From sequence record MH816966: DNA of 64,000 bases; one strand, 5' to 3'. Source of the DNA: Escherichia phage FEC19. The notes under the pieces are model-generated. The model saw nothing but the letters and a program-made list of their open reading frames with translations, was not told the origin of the DNA and searched no databases. This document shows, piece by piece, positions 2,140-58,956 of this stretch. Every line of letters begins with the position of its first letter. Positions within the stretch are counted from its first letter, which is position 1. The translations under genes and the position numbers were made by a program.

Positions 2140-2450
2140 TGGTTGAAGCGTATCATGACGTATCATCCGTATCGCCGCAAGTCTTTGTTTTTATTTATAT
2201 CTTACGGATAATACGTATAAATATAAGTTTAGTATAAGTATGAGGATGTAGAAAAAAATTAATTTAAATTAATTCAAAATGGAGTTAATTGTTTTTTTCA
2301 AAGTTGTATAAAGTATAGCGGCGACGCGTATCATCCGTATCATCCGTAAGATGTACCACTGAACCCAGTCGCGGCGCACCATAGAAGTGTGTGGAGTGAA
2401 CTACGGATAGGTCCAAATCTTACGTCATTATACGCTTAAATTCTATGCGT
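2140..2450. repeat. composite intergenic element copy 1: multiple TACGGATGA/TCATCCGTA 9-mers in both orientations, AT-rich palindromic core, GCGTATAATGACGTA box
   Basis: A ~45-bp block (ataaagtat.gcgg..acgcgtatcatccgtatcatccgtaagat) is near-identical to 54420-54468. Confidence 0.8.
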
Positions 2451-2720
2451 AAGGTTAGCCAGCTAACTATATCTCCTTTTTAATTTCAAGCGGCAATCCC
2501 AGAGACGGCGCAGCCTACAGGCCCACACACCACGGTACACGCCCCAAAACCTAGTGATTCCCTCTCCAATACCACAACACCACAGTACAATATTCTTCCA
2601 AATTCGCACACATATTCAAGACACAAAAATCACGTCACAATACTCACACCCCCACCATCCTCTAATAGATTTACACAAATCAATCGCTTTATCCGATAAT
2701 AAAGACTCACAAGCAACAAG

Positions 2721-2744
2721 CAAACAAAAAGGGCCAATCGGCCC
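2721..2744 (-). terminator. intrinsic terminator after gene 2763..3215
   Basis: gggccaatcggccc hairpin; minus strand reads hairpin then tttttgttt. Confidence 0.6.
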
Positions 2745-2762
2745 TCTTAACATTAATCACTA

Positions 2763-3215
2763 TTAAAATATAAAATTCTTCACTCCAAGCCTTTTAAATT
2801 CCTTCCTTATCATCATATTAAACTTCTTCAATTTAGTTTTATTCATCCTTAAAGGATTGTAAGTGAGTACCTCTTCTATTACTTCCTTACGCATCTTTGA
2901 GCGCATATTAGTTAAGTAATAATTCTTGAACATATTAATAAGGTGATTGGCTTCCAGCTTAAGCTCAATTACTTCTTCCGATTCATCAAGCTCAAGTAAT
3001 CCTTTTTGCGTAAGAATATCTCTTAATATATTCTGGCACTTCTTGCAATCACCTTTACCTAAAAGCGAATCGATATAATCGCCGCTGACGCGCTCATCAC
3101 CGAAATATGTTGCGCGACCGCAAAGGCTTTGCACTTCTCCTTCGTCAAAGTAATGCGCACGATGGCCCCACTTCGGTATGGCCCAACCAGCGGCGATAAG
3201 CTTGTTACCCATCAC
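2763..3215 (-). CDS. hypothetical early protein
   Basis: 150-aa ORF in tightly packed minus-strand operon. Confidence 0.5.
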   Translation of the reverse strand: MMGNKLIAAGWAIPKWGHRAHYFDEGEVQSLCGRATYFGDERVSGDYIDSLLGKGDCKKCQNILRDILTQKGLLELDESEEVIELKLEANHLINMFKNYYLTNMRSKMRKEVIEEVLTYNPLRMNKTKLKKFNMMIRKEFKRLGVKNFIF

Positions 3216-3637
3216 CCCTCCTTAACGACGCGATAAGCAATGATGTCGCTGCCCTTTAACGCGCCTATATGGCCCCAGTGAAGATGGTCAGAGAGTCTTG
3301 ACAGTACTTTATCTCCTCCATTGCGCAGCTTGTATTCAACCATCTTCCCAGGCACCGGATTATTGCCACCAAACCACACGGTCCACGCTTCCTCCTTCGG
3401 CGCATCAACGTCCACGCCTATAGTAGCAACAACGTCATGCAACTGCTTAACGAGCGCCGATGCATCACGGACCTGCGAGCGTAATGCAACCAACTCGCGT
3501 TGCGCTTCACTGTATTTCGCTTCCAGCGCGGCGTAGTCCTCATATGCAACAAAACGTCCTTCGTGACTTTCTGGAACAGGAGTGATGTCGAAATCTTCTG
3601 TCGCCACATCGTATGTCAGGTCATAACGTTGTATCAT
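3212..3637 (-). CDS. hypothetical early protein; C-terminal domain paralogous to 4841..5341
   Basis: Shared C-terminal W.GG.NPVPGK...IIAYRVV motif. Confidence 0.55.
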   Translation of the reverse strand: MIQRYDLTYDVATEDFDITPVPESHEGRFVAYEDYAALEAKYSEAQRELVALRSQVRDASALVKQLHDVVATIGVDVDAPKEEAWTVWFGGNNPVPGKMVEYKLRNGGDKVLSRLSDHLHWGHIGALKGSDIIAYRVVKEG

Positions 3638-4183: not shown

Positions 4184-4503
4184 TCGAATTTCTCCGTTTC
4201 TTTAATGCACTGTAACACTTCTTCAAGGCCCACTTCAACTTGAACATCGCTGTGACGCATCTCATCAATGAAGTCATCTTCACAGCGTATCGGGTTGTGC
4301 ATCGTTAATATTTCAAATACCTTGACGTGACTTACCAAAGGCAGAAGGTGCTTCCTTACTAGTTTGATCAAAACATCGTGGGAGTCTTTGTCTTTTAATT
4401 CTGATTCAATATTGTTTTCTTCACAGAAAAGTGACACAATGTCGCCATCCATGAATCCGAACTTAGATGCAAGCGAACGCGCCTGCAAGTGAAGAGTTTT
4501 CAT
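4180..4503 (-). CDS. hypothetical early protein
   Basis: 107-aa ORF, overlapping start/stop with neighbours. Confidence 0.5.
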   Translation of the reverse strand: MKTLHLQARSLASKFGFMDGDIVSLFCEENNIESELKDKDSHDVLIKLVRKHLLPLVSHVKVFEILTMHNPIRCEDDFIDEMRHSDVQVEVGLEEVLQCIKETEKFE

Positions 4504-4841
4504 TTGACCTTCTCCAATTGGAATCTTGCTTCTGGAAAGCCTGCGACAAACATGTCACGGCCCTCGACATCACGCTTCACGAACCAACGCATTCCGCTGA
4601 CTACCGTGAAGACAATTTGCCTTCCATCAATAATAAGTCCTTTTGCCTCATAAAGCAAATAAGTCTGACCGACTTTGAAGCTTAACATATCCTTGCTTGT
4701 GCTGGTGCACTTGAGCCGCCACTGGGTGAGATTTGATTCGCTTGCTTCGATGTCAACAACCTTACCGCGCAGCGACGATGTGCGCTGAAGCTCTTGCATT
4801 TGCTCGTCGAACGTGAGTTCACGGCCTTCTTGCTCTTCCAT
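4500..4841 (-). CDS. hypothetical early protein
   Basis: 113-aa ORF. Confidence 0.5.
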   Translation of the reverse strand: MEEQEGRELTFDEQMQELQRTSSLRGKVVDIEASESNLTQWRLKCTSTSKDMLSFKVGQTYLLYEAKGLIIDGRQIVFTVVSGMRWFVKRDVEGRDMFVAGFPEARFQLEKVK

Positions 4842-5341
4842 TATTCCTCCACGACGCGATAAGCAATGATGTCATAAACGCTTCCGTTGTGCTGCCACAG
4901 CCATCCTTCTGAATTGGATGAATAAGAAGACTTCTCTTCATTCCTCCACATCAACATGACCTTCTTACCAGGCACCGGATTCTTGCCGCCAGCCCATTCA
5001 ATCCAACCTTCATGAGATTCTTCGGGCTTCTTCAAGTGCTCATGCTTCTCACCGATGTGGGCGACAGGTTGACGGCTTCCGTAATAGAATGCCAACGCAA
5101 CGTCGTAGGATGGATGGGTGTTGGATAAGCAAATGTCATCACACCAAAGCTCCATGGTGCGCGACTTAAGCGTCATCATATTAGTATACCACTCGATGGT
5201 GTAGTGGTCGTTAAGGTTGCCGACAATATAGAAGTTGCGGCAAAAGTGCGCAGCGTCATCCGACTTCTCGCGGCTATAGCTTCTGATTGCGCCTGCCTTT
5301 ACAGCCATTTCCAATACTGCTTCGAGTTGTTCGATTTTCAT
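4841..5341 (-). CDS. hypothetical early protein; C-terminal domain paralogous to 3212..3637
   Basis: C-terminus WAGGKNPVPGKKV...DIIAYRVVEE. Confidence 0.55.
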   Translation of the reverse strand: MKIEQLEAVLEMAVKAGAIRSYSREKSDDAAHFCRNFYIVGNLNDHYTIEWYTNMMTLKSRTMELWCDDICLSNTHPSYDVALAFYYGSRQPVAHIGEKHEHLKKPEESHEGWIEWAGGKNPVPGKKVMLMWRNEEKSSYSSNSEGWLWQHNGSVYDIIAYRVVEE

Positions 5342-5583
5342 TTCTTTACTCCTAGTTCAATTTGATAGCCGATTGACAATTCATTTTCGCCGATGTTGAA
5401 TGCATCAACGGGCTGCGACATCACCGCCTTTAAATATACCTTCTTGCGCCGCTTTGCCTTGTACAAACAACGGTCGCCGCTGCGGTTGTAGATGTTAAGC
5501 CAGGTGCGCTTACTGATCTTATAAGGCACATGCGGCTTGATGAATAATAAACGGGCCTTAAGATTGGATGTCATAGTATTCAC
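5338..5583 (-). CDS. hypothetical early protein (basic)
   Basis: 81-aa ORF. Confidence 0.4.
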   Translation of the reverse strand: MNTMTSNLKARLLFIKPHVPYKISKRTWLNIYNRSGDRCLYKAKRRKKVYLKAVMSQPVDAFNIGENELSIGYQIELGVKK

Positions 5584-5882
5584 TTCCCTCCAAACGTTGC
5601 AACACGGATGTCGCGACGCGAAAAAGTCAGAACAGTGTCAAGGCTGCCAGCACAGGTTATGAATATATCGTCTGCAACAAGGTCATACCCGCCGACGCAA
5701 AGAATAAATGTGTCATCGCTATTCTTTAATAGCATGATTGCTGCAACACCGTCCTTTTTATTCTTAAAGAAGAATACTGGCTCACCGCCTTCTTGCGTCT
5801 CCTTGAACTCTTTAATTGCACCACAGTTCACGGCTTCTTGCAAAGCATTCAAAACCTTTTTCTTCATTGCTTCGTTACTCAT
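5580..5882 (-). CDS. hypothetical early protein (start at internal Met MSNEAM)
   Basis: AAAGGAGA RBS 7 nt upstream of ATG at 5880-5882; the longer ORF would overlap the promoter. Confidence 0.5.
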   Translation of the reverse strand: MSNEAMKKKVLNALQEAVNCGAIKEFKETQEGGEPVFFFKNKKDGVAAIMLLKNSDDTFILCVGGYDLVADDIFITCAGSLDTVLTFSRRDIRVATFGGK

Positions 5883-5910
5883 AATCAATTCTCCTTTGCT
5901 TGATGAACTA

Positions 5911-5957
5911 AGTATAATACAGGCAAATAAAAAGGCAAGCATTTAGCTCACCTTTTT
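5911..5957 (-). promoter_or_regulatory. terminator-promoter cassette copy A: hairpin plus U-run after gene 5961..6221, overlapping sigma70-like promoter (TTGCCT-16-TATACT)
   Basis: 28-bp core aaaaggcaagcatttagctcaccttttt identical to 7470-7497. Confidence 0.6.
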
Positions 5958-5960
5958 GAA

Positions 5961-6221
5961 TTAAATATTCTTCGCCTCTTCGTGGAGGCCGACCGACCTT
6001 AGTTTTCGTCGCAAGTAAGCTTTCTTTTCACTCTCCCGCCCGGCTGGAGTCACGCGCCAGCGTAATGTGTTCTCCAGATTCTTGCGTCGGTTGTGCTTGT
6101 CGAGTAGCTCTACCAGTGCCTTTGCGTCGTCGAGTGTTAATGCCACGGGCCGCGACCCATTAACGGCTTGTCGAAGCTTCCGCGCGGCAACGGCTAACTT
6201 AGTCATCGGACCTTTGTTCAC
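5961..6221 (-). CDS. hypothetical early protein (basic)
   Basis: 86-aa ORF. Confidence 0.5.
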   Translation of the reverse strand: MNKGPMTKLAVAARKLRQAVNGSRPVALTLDDAKALVELLDKHNRRKNLENTLRWRVTPAGRESEKKAYLRRKLRSVGLHEEAKNI

Positions 6222-6613
6222 GGCAACTCCTTATTCATAGGCGTGATAGACAACACCTTTACGTCTGTGATGTCACGGTTGTATTCGCGCTTGATTTGTA
6301 GAATCTGGGATTGGATGCGCGCGATAAAGTGCCACGTGATGCCTTCCTTAACGTTAATCCAGGCCGCAAGCTGAATTGAATCGATTTCACTTCTCAATGT
6401 CATCGGTCTGTAAGCAGCACTTTGTGCACCATAAGCAGGCTGTGTATCGTAAGCTGAATACTTGAATGACACCAAGAACATTCTTTCTTCAAGCTGACTC
6501 TCGCTATTAGGATTCTTATCACAATTAGCCATGTGTCGCAAGAACTCTTCATGCGGAAGATGCATCACATCGTGACAATACGGACAACGTTTCATTCTCA
6601 TTTTACACCTCAT
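6218..6613 (-). CDS. hypothetical Cys/His zinc-finger-like protein, paralog of 6603..6887
   Basis: N-terminal CPYCHDVMHLPHEEFLRHMANC motif. Confidence 0.5.
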   Translation of the reverse strand: MRCKMRMKRCPYCHDVMHLPHEEFLRHMANCDKNPNSESQLEERMFLVSFKYSAYDTQPAYGAQSAAYRPMTLRSEIDSIQLAAWINVKEGITWHFIARIQSQILQIKREYNRDITDVKVLSITPMNKELP

Positions 6614-6887
6614 GCAAGAAAGACAAAGATTTGATGCAGACTATTTCTTTTCCAGATACTTCCTTTATTGTATCCAGCAGGCTTTCATACGCCTTTTTGG
6701 TGATCACCATTTCTTTCGTGGTAACGATTCCTGTTGCGCCTGAGCCGTCGTCTGCTTCCGCGTGATAATGATAATAGTAACGCGTCGAATTTTCAGGATT
6801 AGCTTCACAAACGTTAACGTGATGTAAATATTCTTCAACAGGAAGTCGCATAGTTAACAAGCAATGTGGGCAGCGTTGCACCTTCAT
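6603..6887 (-). CDS. hypothetical Cys/His zinc-finger-like protein, paralog of 6218..6613
   Basis: N-terminal RCPHCLLTMRLPVEEYLHHVNVCE motif. Confidence 0.5.
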   Translation of the reverse strand: MKVQRCPHCLLTMRLPVEEYLHHVNVCEANPENSTRYYYHYHAEADDGSGATGIVTTKEMVITKKAYESLLDTIKEVSGKEIVCIKSLSFLHEV

Positions 6888-7120
6888 TTTGCATACTCCA
6901 TAGCATATTGCTGCAGCTTAAACGCAGCCTTTTGTAATTGTTTGTGACGTTCAAATAACGTCTCACGCTTTTCAGCAGGGCAATCGGCGCGAAGCATTGT
7001 TATGGCAACGCTTGACATAGCATTCAATAAAAACTGAAAACGAGACACCATTCTCAGCTCATTACGCTTGTTGAAAGACAGCTTACCCAGCGCGGCATTC
7101 ATAATTGCACCTCGACACAC
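6884..7120 (-). CDS. hypothetical early protein
   Basis: 78-aa ORF. Confidence 0.4.
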   Translation of the reverse strand: MCRGAIMNAALGKLSFNKRNELRMVSRFQFLLNAMSSVAITMLRADCPAEKRETLFERHKQLQKAAFKLQQYAMEYAK

Positions 7121-7416
7121 GATTCACTAGCCTTGAATCCCCAGCCTTCCAGACCGACTTCGCCGCAGTAACGCGCCATTGCACGCTCATCCAAGAACCA
7201 ACCGTGATATTGCTCTATGTACTTTGGTTTTTCTGAATAACAGTGAATGACTCCGTCGTCATCAATGGCCACGTAACGCGTGCCAGGCGCGACTGGTACA
7301 ACTACGTTTGGGTGGACGATTGGCCAAGGCTTGATGTGTACGGCTGTGTCTAACTTAACGTTTGGCACCCTTGAAAGGTCTTTGTAAGCGCCCTCGTCCA
7401 TTCCTAAGTAAATCAT
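7099..7416 (-). CDS. hypothetical early protein
   Basis: 105-aa ORF immediately downstream of cassette copy B. Confidence 0.5.
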   Translation of the reverse strand: MIYLGMDEGAYKDLSRVPNVKLDTAVHIKPWPIVHPNVVVPVAPGTRYVAIDDDGVIHCYSEKPKYIEQYHGWFLDERAMARYCGEVGLEGWGFKASESCVEVQL

Positions 7417-7448: not shown

Positions 7449-7497
7449 AGTATAAGTATTGATAAAAGAAAAGGCAAGCATTTAGCTCACCTTTTTG
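7449..7497 (-). promoter_or_regulatory. terminator-promoter cassette copy B (TTGCCT-17-TATACT)
   Basis: Same hairpin core as copy A, directly after stop of gene 7502..7834. Confidence 0.6.
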
Positions 7498-52089: not shown

Positions 52090-52707
52090 TTAACGAGTCA
52101 ATTGTACAATGGTATAAGTGGAAGACTGGACGCTTGGGCCGGAAAGGGCAATAGTCGTCGGGTCAATCACAATACCGCCTGGGATGGCAACCATGCCAGT
52201 TGGCAATGAGCCAGTATAGGCGATAATTGCACCAATAGGCAAGTTGTTCGGGTTGTTACCGCTGGAAATGCCTTTAGGTACATAAGCAAGCAGGTCGCCA
52301 TAGTTAAGCGTCTGCGGACTGGTGCTTGGGTTGAATACTTCAACTACGAGGCCCGTGCACATATCATAGAACTCGCCTTCGCTATATTGAGGCAGAACCA
52401 TGCTGGCACCCAAAGGGCCAGTAGAGTTGCCATACAGCGCGTAACGCTTGCTATTGCCGAGGATGCCGTAGTAGTTAGTGCCGCCCAGCTCAACTTCAAA
52501 GTCCTGCGCGCCCAAAGTTTTGGTTTGACCAGTACCCATTAAGGATACGTCAGTCTTAAAACCGAACACACGGCTGATGGCGTTTACGTTTGCGCCTTCG
52601 TTAGCGTTGGCAATTCGGCCTGGCTTCCCACGCTGTGGGCCGTCGCGAACGATGTCGCCAGGAAAGCCAGTTGTATATTGACGGCCTACACTAGTTTGGA
52701 AAGTCAT
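52090..52707 (-). CDS. capsid-associated structural protein
   Basis: Start trimmed to MTFQTS; lies between scaffold and capsid genes. Confidence 0.45.
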   Translation of the reverse strand: MTFQTSVGRQYTTGFPGDIVRDGPQRGKPGRIANANEGANVNAISRVFGFKTDVSLMGTGQTKTLGAQDFEVELGGTNYYGILGNSKRYALYGNSTGPLGASMVLPQYSEGEFYDMCTGLVVEVFNPSTSPQTLNYGDLLAYVPKGISSGNNPNNLPIGAIIAYTGSLPTGMVAIPGGIVIDPTTIALSGPSVQSSTYTIVQLTR

Positions 52708-56474: not shown

Positions 56475-58850
56475 TCAACCTTGCTTCGGTGAATTAGTAG
56501 GATTATTGAGTGCTCCGTATGCTTGAGAGCAATCACCCTTCAACCACTCTTTGAATGAGTTCACATCTAATTCGTGGATTGAGTCGAATCCGTTCCAACC
56601 GTTACCAAATGATGCCTGATAAGCTTCTTTTGCTTCTTCTGCTGAATCGAATCCAAGCATGCACTTGTGTTCATCGAACTCGCCAGAGTAGTTATCGTTT
56701 TGGTTCACGATAAAGACCTTCGGCGACTTCAGATTTGTGCCAACAAAGCAGTCGACTTCATCGCCGTCCGCGCCCTTGGTGCCTTTGATGAATCCGTAGT
56801 GGTGCGGCATCTTGACTGCCCATTCACCGTCAAGGCTGTTTCCTCTACGGATGCTGTTGCGAGGATTCTCAATCCCAAGAATCAGCCCATGCAACTTCAT
56901 CTTAGGTAATGATGCTGCGTCCATCTTTCCAACGTTGTGTCGTAAGTTGACGACATTACCTTTGACGCTTGGAAGGGTAGACGGTTGCACCGACCGTGAA
57001 TCTTTTTGAGGGTCAAAATCCACATCCTGACCTTCTTTCAGGTAGTAATCCGCAATACCCTCCAGACCTTCTTTCAACTGCGTTAGGACATCAACCTGAT
57101 GGCTTGATTCATCGTCGGTATCGTCCATGTTGATTTCGACAGGCGCTCTGTCAGGGTTTTCCGCCAACTCACCGCGCGCGGCACCTTCTGGCATAATGCC
57201 TGTTTCACTGTAGAACTGGCCGCCCATCTTAACGACATCAGCTTTCGCCTGTTCAATATCGGCCTTACCTTGTAGGACTTCACCAGCAGACTTGCCAAGC
57301 AATGCCATATTCTCTGGAGACATCCCTGGTGTTTCTTCTGCCGCATCTTCCGGCAGACGGTTGTAGCCGCTGTTTTTGTCGTCTTTGATGCGGTCGCGCT
57401 CTTCATCAGGAGAAATGACGCCAGCATCAATAAGAGTTTTGCCAGTGTTGGCTCGCTTATCATTGATTTCTGCAAGTTGAGTAGCAGTAAGTGAGCCAAC
57501 TGGTTCCCATGCAACCTTAACATCGACATCCACCCCTTCTGATTTGAGAAGGATTTTGTAATGGCGGTCGAGAATTTTTGTCAGGTCATGCTGCTGGCAC
57601 GTTTCCAACTCTTCGTGATAGCTGACCATCTCGAATTCACCAGTGGCGTTAAAGCCTTTTGGCGAAGTCCCAAGCAGTTTGGTCGACGGAACTTTTGCGA
57701 TTGCGGCCACCAGCTGGTACTGGTTCATGATGATGCTGTCGAAGTCTGACAAGTTGATATCAAACTGGTCCATCTCTTCTTTTTGGCCAAGCACTTTGAC
57801 TGCATAGTTGTCGCGGTACTTGATCCACATCATCAGACGTTCTGCAAAAGACCGCTCATTGGCAATCGCCTTGTCAACGTCGGTCCGCAGCGTGGTTGTA
57901 CGCTTGGACATCGCCAGCAATGGCGCTTCGTTAGCGGTACGTTCAGCGGCATAGATGCGTTCATAAATCTGCTGAGTCAGAGGAATGCCGCCGTAAATAT
58001 AAGTTGGCTTGAGAATATCAGCTGGCTCATCATTGCGCAAGATGATGAGGTGACTTCGATGATAACGTTGTCCACTGATCACCCAGTATTCTGGATCATA
58101 GAAGTGCTGTGATGCAGGGTCGGCGGTGTTTTCAGACGTCAAAAATGGCATCATCCAATAAGGGTCGACCTGAATGATTCCCTTATAAGACCCCTTTGTC
58201 ACACCATCAATGTTAAAAGGCTTGCTGTAATATTCTGGGTCATCGCTACGCACATCAAATATGATGACGCGGATACCAAAAATATTTTTGAATCGTTCGG
58301 CTTCAACTAAGTGCTCTTTGATATTAAATTCTTTATCAATTTGCTTTAGGCGTTCGCTTGCCTGTACTGACAATTCTGACTCAGAACTGGATTTGACTTC
58401 CCATCCTTTACGGACCGCATCGCGGCCTACCATGGAACAAGCCTTGTTCACCAGCCAGTGCTGCGCGATGATGGCGCAAGCTTGATATCCGATAAATGAT
58501 TGCGATAAGTACCAGTTTTGCAACTGAATAGGTACTGTGTATGGGTTGACTTGCCCTTCTGAACTGATGTTCTTTAAGGCATTATCCATAACTTTTTTGG
58601 ATACTGTTGCGGAATCGACTGAGCGACCTTTTATGATTGCAACACCATCGCCATTAATATCAGGCTCATATAAAGGGAAGTCATCAACCGTTTTAAAGGT
58701 CGGTCGATTGCTTTCAGTCTTTTCCCAGCGTTGACCGCTGCCGCGCCTTTCAAGGCGTTCAAACGGTGCCAATGGGTCGCCTGGCGGCATCTCCGCTGGT
58801 TCGGCTTCTGGTTGCGTCTTCTCCCAGAGTTTTATGCCAAGAATTTTCAT
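56475..58850 (-). CDS. portal protein with C-terminal extension
   Basis: 792 aa between terminase and MuF; AGGTGG RBS before trimmed start MKILGIK. Confidence 0.65.
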   Translation of the reverse strand: MKILGIKLWEKTQPEAEPAEMPPGDPLAPFERLERRGSGQRWEKTESNRPTFKTVDDFPLYEPDINGDGVAIIKGRSVDSATVSKKVMDNALKNISSEGQVNPYTVPIQLQNWYLSQSFIGYQACAIIAQHWLVNKACSMVGRDAVRKGWEVKSSSESELSVQASERLKQIDKEFNIKEHLVEAERFKNIFGIRVIIFDVRSDDPEYYSKPFNIDGVTKGSYKGIIQVDPYWMMPFLTSENTADPASQHFYDPEYWVISGQRYHRSHLIILRNDEPADILKPTYIYGGIPLTQQIYERIYAAERTANEAPLLAMSKRTTTLRTDVDKAIANERSFAERLMMWIKYRDNYAVKVLGQKEEMDQFDINLSDFDSIIMNQYQLVAAIAKVPSTKLLGTSPKGFNATGEFEMVSYHEELETCQQHDLTKILDRHYKILLKSEGVDVDVKVAWEPVGSLTATQLAEINDKRANTGKTLIDAGVISPDEERDRIKDDKNSGYNRLPEDAAEETPGMSPENMALLGKSAGEVLQGKADIEQAKADVVKMGGQFYSETGIMPEGAARGELAENPDRAPVEINMDDTDDESSHQVDVLTQLKEGLEGIADYYLKEGQDVDFDPQKDSRSVQPSTLPSVKGNVVNLRHNVGKMDAASLPKMKLHGLILGIENPRNSIRRGNSLDGEWAVKMPHHYGFIKGTKGADGDEVDCFVGTNLKSPKVFIVNQNDNYSGEFDEHKCMLGFDSAEEAKEAYQASFGNGWNGFDSIHELDVNSFKEWLKGDCSQAYGALNNPTNSPKQG

Positions 58851-58956
58851 TGTTAACGCCACCTGACAGTGAAAGGGAATCAATCTATATTATAAATATT
58901 CATGTGTTTGTAAGCAAATGATATGTATGGTGATCATAAATAGTTCATAAAATATT

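Follow-up and report, generated by a model that had tools for sequence, protein, structure and literature searches.

Two small genes that follow one another in the window—the whole stretch of 64,000 nucleotides from Escherichia phage FEC19 (MH816966) analysed here—encode proteins that open with the same arrangement of cysteines and a histidine, raising the question of whether they are true relatives, how they came to lie side by side, and what role such a pair might serve. The DNA of the window is 83–91% identical to that of the Wifcevirus phages Ro157lw, WFC, WFH, and ECML-117, and its source phage is a Wifcevirus; the product of the downstream gene of the pair matches a FEC19 protein at 100% identity. 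The minus strand carries terminase, portal, and structural genes at 33–61 kb, the plus strand a replication module at 15–32 kb, and the minus strand again two primase genes at 10.6–14.7 kb. Downstream of the primase genes, at about 0.4–10 kb and again on the minus strand, lies an array of small uncharacterised ORFs to which both genes, here called A and B, belong. None of the ten neighbours scanned carries an annotated function, and literature searches on Wifcevirus, vB_Eco4M-7, and DUF7501 turned up nothing on A or B and no transcript data.

Within this array, A and B form part of a run of five minus-strand genes. U2 (7099..7416; 105 aa), which matches phrog_1972 (no known function), opens the run and is followed by U1 (6884..7102; 72 aa, beginning MNAALGKL), the gene directly upstream of B. 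B itself (6603..6887, stop codon included; 94 aa) is an accessory paralogue consisting of a finger and a predicted beta-beta-alpha-beta domain, while A (6218..6601, stop codon included; 127 aa) is the paralogue found throughout the genus as a core gene. D1 (5961..6221; 86 aa), whose GTG start overlaps the end of A, closes the run. The boundaries of A given here differ from those of the program-made ORF list, which places B at 6603..6887 (94 aa) and A at 6218..6613 (131 aa), both on the minus strand. The ATG of B overlaps the stop codon of U1 (ATGA) and has a GGAG Shine–Dalgarno sequence 8 nt upstream. The listed start of A at 6613, also used in the earlier note, falls inside the last codons of B, lacks a ribosome-binding site, and appears to be off by 12 nt. 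The favoured ATG at 6601 (MRMKRCPYC) lies 1 nt past the B stop codon (TAA), behind a GAGGTG Shine–Dalgarno sequence that can be read at 6606..6611 on the minus strand, within the last codons of B. The equivalent start is annotated in WFC and WFH and also in every phage lacking B (hereafter B-minus, as opposed to B-plus), where it overlaps the stop codon of the upstream gene U1 (ATGA). Given the Shine–Dalgarno sequence, the WFC and WFH annotation, and the U1 overlap in B-minus phages, A almost certainly begins at 6601.

The resemblance between the two proteins is concentrated in their first 35 residues, a finger module encoded on the minus strand at 6497..6601 in A and at 6783..6887 in B. In A the motif is CPYCHDVMHLPHEEFLRHMANC and in B CPHCLLTMRLPVEEYLHHVNVC, with putative ligands C6, C9, H23, and C27 in each (encoded within 6521..6586 and 6807..6872, respectively). 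No deviation from the ligand layout C6-x2-C9-x13-H23-x3-C27 occurs in 30 A-type sequences or in any sequence of B type; over all collected sequences of both types, the invariant positions are C6, P7, C9, L15, H23, C27, and P31. The hydrophobic positions between the ligand pairs are similarly constrained, with M13 nearly invariant, L15 invariant, and F or Y at position 20, three residues before H23. The window has 238 ORFs of 45 aa or more, of which A and B alone show the pattern CxxC...[HC]x2-4[HC].

This similarity lies far above chance. BLASTP aligns residues 1–36 of A and B with 15 of 36 identities (E 2e-10), the Smith–Waterman score is 94 as against 22.8 ± 4.9 over 5000 shuffles, and hhalign of the two families returns a probability of 96.6%, covering columns 1–35 only. 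Nor is it confined to the cysteine spacing, an outcome that would have spoken against the earlier note: with the four ligands and Met1 removed, 10 of 31 positions are identical, and the BLOSUM62 sum over the remaining positions is 54, as compared with −21 ± 12 for shuffled sequences, a value reached by none of 100,000 shuffles. Judged by their sequences, the fingers of A and B are homologous, and the CxxC...H...C module that had been recognised in these adjacent genes stands. The proposal that the genes are tandem paralogues can be upheld for these first 35 residues, whereas paralogy of the whole genes is not demonstrable by sequence; past residue ~35, the alignment score is 25 against a shuffled 21.5 ± 3.8, and 937 of 5000 shuffles reach 25.

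Structure prediction bears on both halves of the proteins. An AlphaFold2 model of A, built from a 30-sequence alignment (mean pLDDT 70), predicts a finger of two short strands (residues 4–5 and 12–13) and a helix (17–26) at pLDDT 82–89, in which the hairpin bears C6 and C9 and the end of the helix H23 and C27; this is the classical beta-beta-alpha layout. The model of B, based on a shallow two-sequence alignment and unreliable in this part (pLDDT 42–49), does not reproduce the beta-beta-alpha finger. For the C-terminal domain of A (residues 39–121, encoded at 6239..6487 on the minus strand), AlphaFold2 predicts a strand (39–51), a variable, low-confidence loop (55–67), a second strand (70–83), a helix (90–107), and a final strand (111–121). 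That of B (residues 37–91, at 6615..6779 on the minus strand; pLDDT 70–81) is predicted as strand (37–45), strand (50–57), helix (64–78), and strand (82–91), the same beta-beta-alpha-beta order of elements. In Foldseek searches of BFVD with the A model, the FEC19 protein itself comes first and B of Ro157lw (94 aa) third, in an end-to-end alignment (E 8e-3, probability 0.98). The converse search with the B model does not list FEC19 A among its best 50 matches, and the structural link between the two models is one-directional and weak. Several small uncharacterised phage proteins are matched by both models, and beyond A and B themselves the searches of BFVD with the two models recovered uncharacterised phage proteins only.

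These predictions are relevant to a rival account of the pair, in which module shuffling fused a finger-coding 5′ segment to an unrelated small gene, leaving A and B with the finger alone in common. Such an account would explain why sequence similarity between A and B stops sharply at residue 35, and it is consistent with the one relative detected outside the genus (P0033, described below), where a similar finger belongs to a different protein, one rich in lysine, as well as with signs that the A finger has itself been swapped between lineages. Against it stand the shared secondary-structure order of the two C-terminal halves, the end-to-end match of the A model to B in BFVD, and the best local alignment of the C-terminal halves, which pairs the helix end and last strand of one protein with those of the other. 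On these models the C-terminal domains are likely homologous as well, and we consider shuffling onto an unrelated gene rather unlikely, though it fares best among the alternatives.

Comparison with known families places the finger in a broad class but not in a named family. Neither A nor B has a significant family match in Pfam, PHROG, NCBIfam, or PADLOC; the best PHROG match of A is phrog_15137 (E 0.045), B has none, and NCBIfam and PADLOC return no match for either at E up to 1. When nine finger variants were compared with Pfam, all matches were below threshold and all belonged to C2HC or C2H2 beta-beta-alpha fingers (DUF7501, ZNF512_C2HC, zf-Di19, and zf-C2HC_2). The most consistent of these neighbours is DUF7501, a family of small uncharacterised proteins exemplified by Haloferax volcanii HVO_1252, which is matched by 8 of the 9 variants (best E 1.8e-5, profile positions 11–34). 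The A finger covers 24 of its 58 profile positions, however, and the scores of 17.8 bits for the finger and 14.2 bits for full-length A fall below the gathering threshold of 27, leaving A outside the family as defined. A search of all PDB sequences with the finger profile gave a best E of 0.15, which is not significant; the matches comprised thioredoxin, the nairovirus Gn finger, and glutaredoxin. Glutaredoxin was discarded as a relative, having CPYC alone in common with the finger, and the best meaningful PDB neighbour, at that same E value of 0.15, is a C2HC finger from the cytoplasmic tail of nairovirus Gn (PDB 2l7x).

With the classical-type C2HC fingers (ZNF512_C2HC, zf-C2HC_2, zf-Di19, and nairovirus Gn), A and B share the order and spacing of the ligands, as well as hydrophobic residues after the second cysteine and three positions before the histidine, and in A the predicted hairpin and helix. 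They differ from these families in having a lone, non-basic finger at the N-terminus and in being encoded by a phage, and none of the four families contains the beta-beta-alpha-beta domain. By its ligand spacing, hydrophobic positions, and predicted fold, the module may be assigned to the classical-type C2HC class, with putative zinc binding. UBZ4/Rad18-type and FOG-type C2HC fingers mediate protein–protein contacts, and they resemble those of A and B in their non-basic character and in the succession CPxC, hydrophobic residues, and H-x3-C. Membership in either group finds no support, as no UBZ or FOG finger appears among the PDB or Pfam matches at E up to 10. Like A and B, the Ogr/Delta and Ros/MucR proteins are small, come from phages or bacteria, and centre on a single zinc finger. 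The Ogr/Delta finger is of the C4 type, as opposed to C2HC in A and B, and profile searches place A and B in neither family: one of the nine fingers matches Ogr_Delta (PF04606) at E 0.049, and none matches ROS_MUCR (PF05443).

The taxonomic distribution of the two genes is narrow and uneven. With tblastn, A is detected in 27 of 27 related Wifcevirus records, B in 11; copy number among related phages, which the earlier note had proposed to survey, does vary. The 11 B-plus records represent 7 distinct phages (Ro157lw, WFH, ECML-117, ECP_WGS_SA1, WFC, Bas98, and TH35), and B is present also in the window, in one IMG/VR contig, and in one Logan contig. A word-indexed search of 5.8 billion proteins identified Wifcevirus copies only, forming 31 clusters at 90% identity for A and one for B, and IMG/VR yielded three contigs only, all from B-plus Wifcevirus. 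Querying 1.84 billion representatives with a joint A and B profile in HMMER recovered A, B, and a single outside protein, P0033, a lysine-rich metagenomic protein of 161 aa matched in its finger only (CPYCKDVIVKEEFTKHKKEC; E 3.4e-4). The 3-kb metagenomic contig that encodes it contains no annotatable gene, and its context is uninformative. A and B thus appear restricted to Wifcevirus as far as sequence searches can detect, bearing in mind that, in a library this large, more distant copies of a 35-residue domain would fall short of significance.

B, together with 1 nt, constitutes a clean 286-bp cassette with AAAATGA on both flanks, and in B-minus phages A occupies the position of B, overlapping the U1 stop codon. 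UPGMA trees built from A, U1, U2, and D1 show B-plus and B-minus genomes interleaved; A of the B-plus phages WFC and TH35, for example, differs by only ~1% from A of the B-minus phage Bas99. This interleaving suggests a presence/absence polymorphism kept up by recombination or repeated loss. Where B is present it is intact, the 94-aa ORF being preserved in 9 of the 9 B-plus genomes aligned.

Purifying selection acts strongly on both genes. Pairwise Nei–Gojobori averages among orthologues give a dN/dS of 0.14 for A (dS 0.47) and 0.056 for B (dS 0.43), as compared with 0.25 for U1, 0.27 for U2, and 0.16 for D1; values this far below 1 indicate that A and B are coding and constrained. The two fingers each have a dN/dS of about 0.10, and the sole relaxed part of A is a disordered loop (residues 52–69) at 0.41. 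The earlier note had read the divergence of the pair as a sign of diversifying selection, an idea to which these pairwise averages lend no support, dN/dS being far below 1 in every segment. The duplication is old, since silent sites have diverged as far in B as in A and the two fingers agree in their coding DNA at only 57 of 105 positions (54%), with 14 of 35 (40%) at third positions.

Variation in the A finger takes the form of at least three divergent alleles carried on otherwise near-identical proteins: the common form HDVMHLPHEEFVQHMTNC, a second allele HDVMRLSHEGFVNHMNGC in CWP003 and others, and a third, B-like allele LKTMQLSVESFMDHVASC in P0029. Divergent fingers on near-identical proteins point to exchange of the module between lineages. 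A recent conversion event between the two genes was also considered and rejected, given the 54% identity of the finger DNA and the difference between the B-like P0029 allele and the B finger of the same genome.

The genes also appear to share a transcription unit. Two identical 26-bp elements (AAAGGTGAGCTAAATGCTTGCCTTTT; none expected by chance) at 7469..7494 and 5930..5955 bracket U2, U1, B, A, and D1. Each forms a stem-loop with a T-run, and its 3′ arm supplies the −35 hexamer of TTGCCT-N16/17-TATACT. Upstream of U2, the stem-loop and T-run at 7469..7494 overlaps a sigma70-like promoter, TTGCCT-17-TATACT, at 7449..7477 (together 7449..7494, minus strand); just past D1, the second copy at 5930..5955 overlaps TTGCCT-16-TATACT at 5911..5938 (together 5911..5955, minus strand). 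Terminators are annotated at both sites in WFC and in WFH. With ribosome-binding sites and translational coupling in addition, the five genes would form one unit read from the predicted sigma70-like promoter, and a promoter of host type fits early expression of A and B, which is plausible.

Taken together, these data suggest the following explanation. A and B are real, translated small proteins, each predicted to combine an N-terminal classical-type (beta-beta-alpha) C2HC zinc finger of ~30 residues with a conserved “NP” linker and a small beta-beta-alpha-beta domain, and both would derive from one ancestral finger-bearing gene, either by an old tandem duplication or by acquiring a divergent allele from a phage relative. 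A would since have become a fixed core gene of Wifcevirus, and B a dispensable 286-bp cassette gained and lost through recombination between co-infecting relatives, with both transcribed alongside three other small genes as a unit from a host sigma70-type promoter. In the protein, zinc would keep the finger rigid, its exposed, lineage-variable surface may recognise a host macromolecule, and the C-terminal domain could provide a surface for self-association or an effector function; A and B may address related but different targets in the early takeover of the host. To this package as a whole—two-part finger proteins, old duplication or capture, and an early role in binding host proteins—we assign a probability of roughly 0.4. 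Its structural and evolutionary part, taken alone, is highly probable, while the assignment of A and B as early factors that bind host proteins is tentative and stands at clearly less than even odds.

The nature of the target is where the main functional alternative enters, namely that A, B, or both are sequence-specific DNA- or RNA-binding regulators of phage gene expression, with the C-terminal domain serving for dimerisation. Small zinc-finger activators such as P2 Ogr and the prokaryotic Ros/MucR finger work in this way, the finger reading nucleic acid, and binding nucleic acids is the main task of classical beta-beta-alpha fingers in general. The N-terminus of A is basic (MRMKR), A is conserved across the genus as a regulator would be, and the closest PDB neighbour by sequence, though not significant, is the nairovirus Gn finger noted above. 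The fingers themselves are not basic, however, with pI values of 6.9 in A and 6.2 in B (7.8 and 6.0 for the full proteins, B being acidic overall), and fingers this close to neutral make a protein target somewhat more likely than a nucleic acid, net charge being a weak argument against nucleic-acid binding. The lack of ROS_MUCR matches and the single marginal Ogr_Delta match likewise count against a regulator, as do the seldom specific binding of a lone finger by itself and the dispensability of B in 16 of 27 records. On balance we regard a regulatory role as unlikely.

A second functional alternative is that A and B are counter-defence proteins directed against components of bacterial immunity, the presence of B tracking the hosts that a phage meets. 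It draws on the mosaic character of the locus, where closely related phages with and without B, an accessory cassette in a small-gene array, are interleaved, and on the divergent A finger alleles exemplified by P0029 and CWP003. It draws also on the biology of the genus, as Wifcevirus phages replicate very fast and resist almost all tested defence systems, a broad resistance for which no protective mechanism is known (PMC11990801). On the other hand, A and B show no homology to known anti-defence or defence proteins, and strongly purifying selection is not the signature expected of an arms race. The BASEL collection offers a natural experiment here, since it contains Bas98 with B and its close relatives Bas99–101 without it. 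All four are insensitive to the tested defence systems except one type III restriction system, and no difference in sensitivity between Bas98 and Bas99–101 has been reported (PMC11990801); the comparison gives no hint of a contribution by B. A counter-defence function is, on this evidence, quite improbable. The weakest alternative, that the cysteine pattern arose by chance or that one of the ORFs is no gene, has nothing in its favour beyond small ORF size and the lack of database families, and can be dismissed given similarity that is significant even without the ligands, dN/dS of 0.06–0.14 at dS of about 0.45, ORFs intact in every genome, and ribosome-binding sites for both genes.

The preferred reading, host-protein-binding finger proteins of old common origin, can be extended further, to a Wifcevirus-restricted zinc-finger family for host takeover or counter-defence, in which the finger would recognise proteins, as in eukaryotic C2HC/UBZ-like fingers, and exchange of finger alleles, of which A has three and B a further one, would direct a common scaffold to different host proteins. 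This extension is speculative and we think it improbable; if true, a retargetable finger family might contribute to the defence resistance of Wifcevirus or to its very fast takeover. In more sober terms, A and B make up a small, lineage-specific zinc-finger family of a kind that phage genomes hold in large numbers, and the finding is modest and fairly ordinary. If confirmed, it would open a first way into 2 of the small genes, roughly 35 in number and uncharacterised, that Wifcevirus phages carry in their accessory arm.

In practical terms, the analysis yields corrected gene starts and allows the idea of diversifying selection to be set aside. Existing annotations are affected at this locus: the protein annotated in FEC19 lacks the first half of the finger, and the Bas98 annotation omits B. 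At the opposite end of A, the last residues, NKELP, are invariant, which can be attributed at least partly to the fact that D1 has its ribosome-binding site and GTG start in overlap with them.

The unit U2-U1-B-A-D1 is flanked on either side by one copy of a 26-bp stem-loop with a T-run; the two copies, on the minus strand of the window at 7469..7494 and 5930..5955, are identical in sequence. The 3' arm of each stem-loop forms the −35 element of a sigma70-like promoter (TTGCCT-N16/17-TATACT; 7449..7477 and 5911..5938, respectively). Gene shuffling in T4-type phages is mediated by promoter-stem-loop cassettes, and we take the paired 26-bp elements to be reminiscent of these. A third match to TTGCCT...TATACT occurs in the window at 52213..52242.

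Directly downstream of D1, gene content varies between phages, with differing sets of 60–160-aa ORFs (compared, for example, in related loci L005–L008 and L015–L027 at about 2150–3400 in locus coordinates, and in the window at about 4500–5960); from these sequences, the region just downstream of the five-gene unit appears to be a hot spot of accessory-gene exchange. Variation is also observed within the unit itself. U1 (6884..7102, 72 aa) and its orthologues in the related loci L001–L029 fall into two very different central alleles (...FQFLLNAMSSVAITMLRADCPAEKRETLF... versus ...FQQTHLSLIKIANKAYSLNCPEEEWKELN...) with identical ends on both sides, and the distribution of these alleles is independent of B; U1 thus resembles a mosaic gene made by recombination. 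Two A proteins, P0029 (L009, 3001..3393; Logan ERR2001076 contig) and that of CWP003 (L025, 1501..1893), combine an otherwise standard A body with strongly divergent finger alleles, about half of the positions in the P0029 finger differing from the common type. These alleles suggest that the A finger is exchanged between lineages as a module.

Public records differ from these gene models for both A and B. The public FEC19 A protein (P0003; UniProt A0A386KM45) is annotated at 115 aa and, compared with window 6218..6601, starts at the internal Met13 (MHLPHEEF...), so that the half of the finger with CPYC is missing from the annotated protein; this start appears to be a mis-call. The intact 94-aa B ORF of Bas98 is absent from the annotation of its record, where a 34-aa ORF and a 156-aa ORF are called in its place.

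On the minus strand of the window, the 166-aa protein at 4841..5341 resembles a two-part fusion: residues 1–104 give an end-to-end match to phrog_21861 (E 8e-54), and residues 105–165 have hits to several additional PHROGs of unknown function. The C-terminal segment (about residues 660–790) of the 802-aa portal or minor-head protein (56475..58883, likewise on the minus strand) matches PHROGs that carry the annotations DarB-like antirestriction, endolysin, and internal virion protein, and may be an additional capsid-carried domain.
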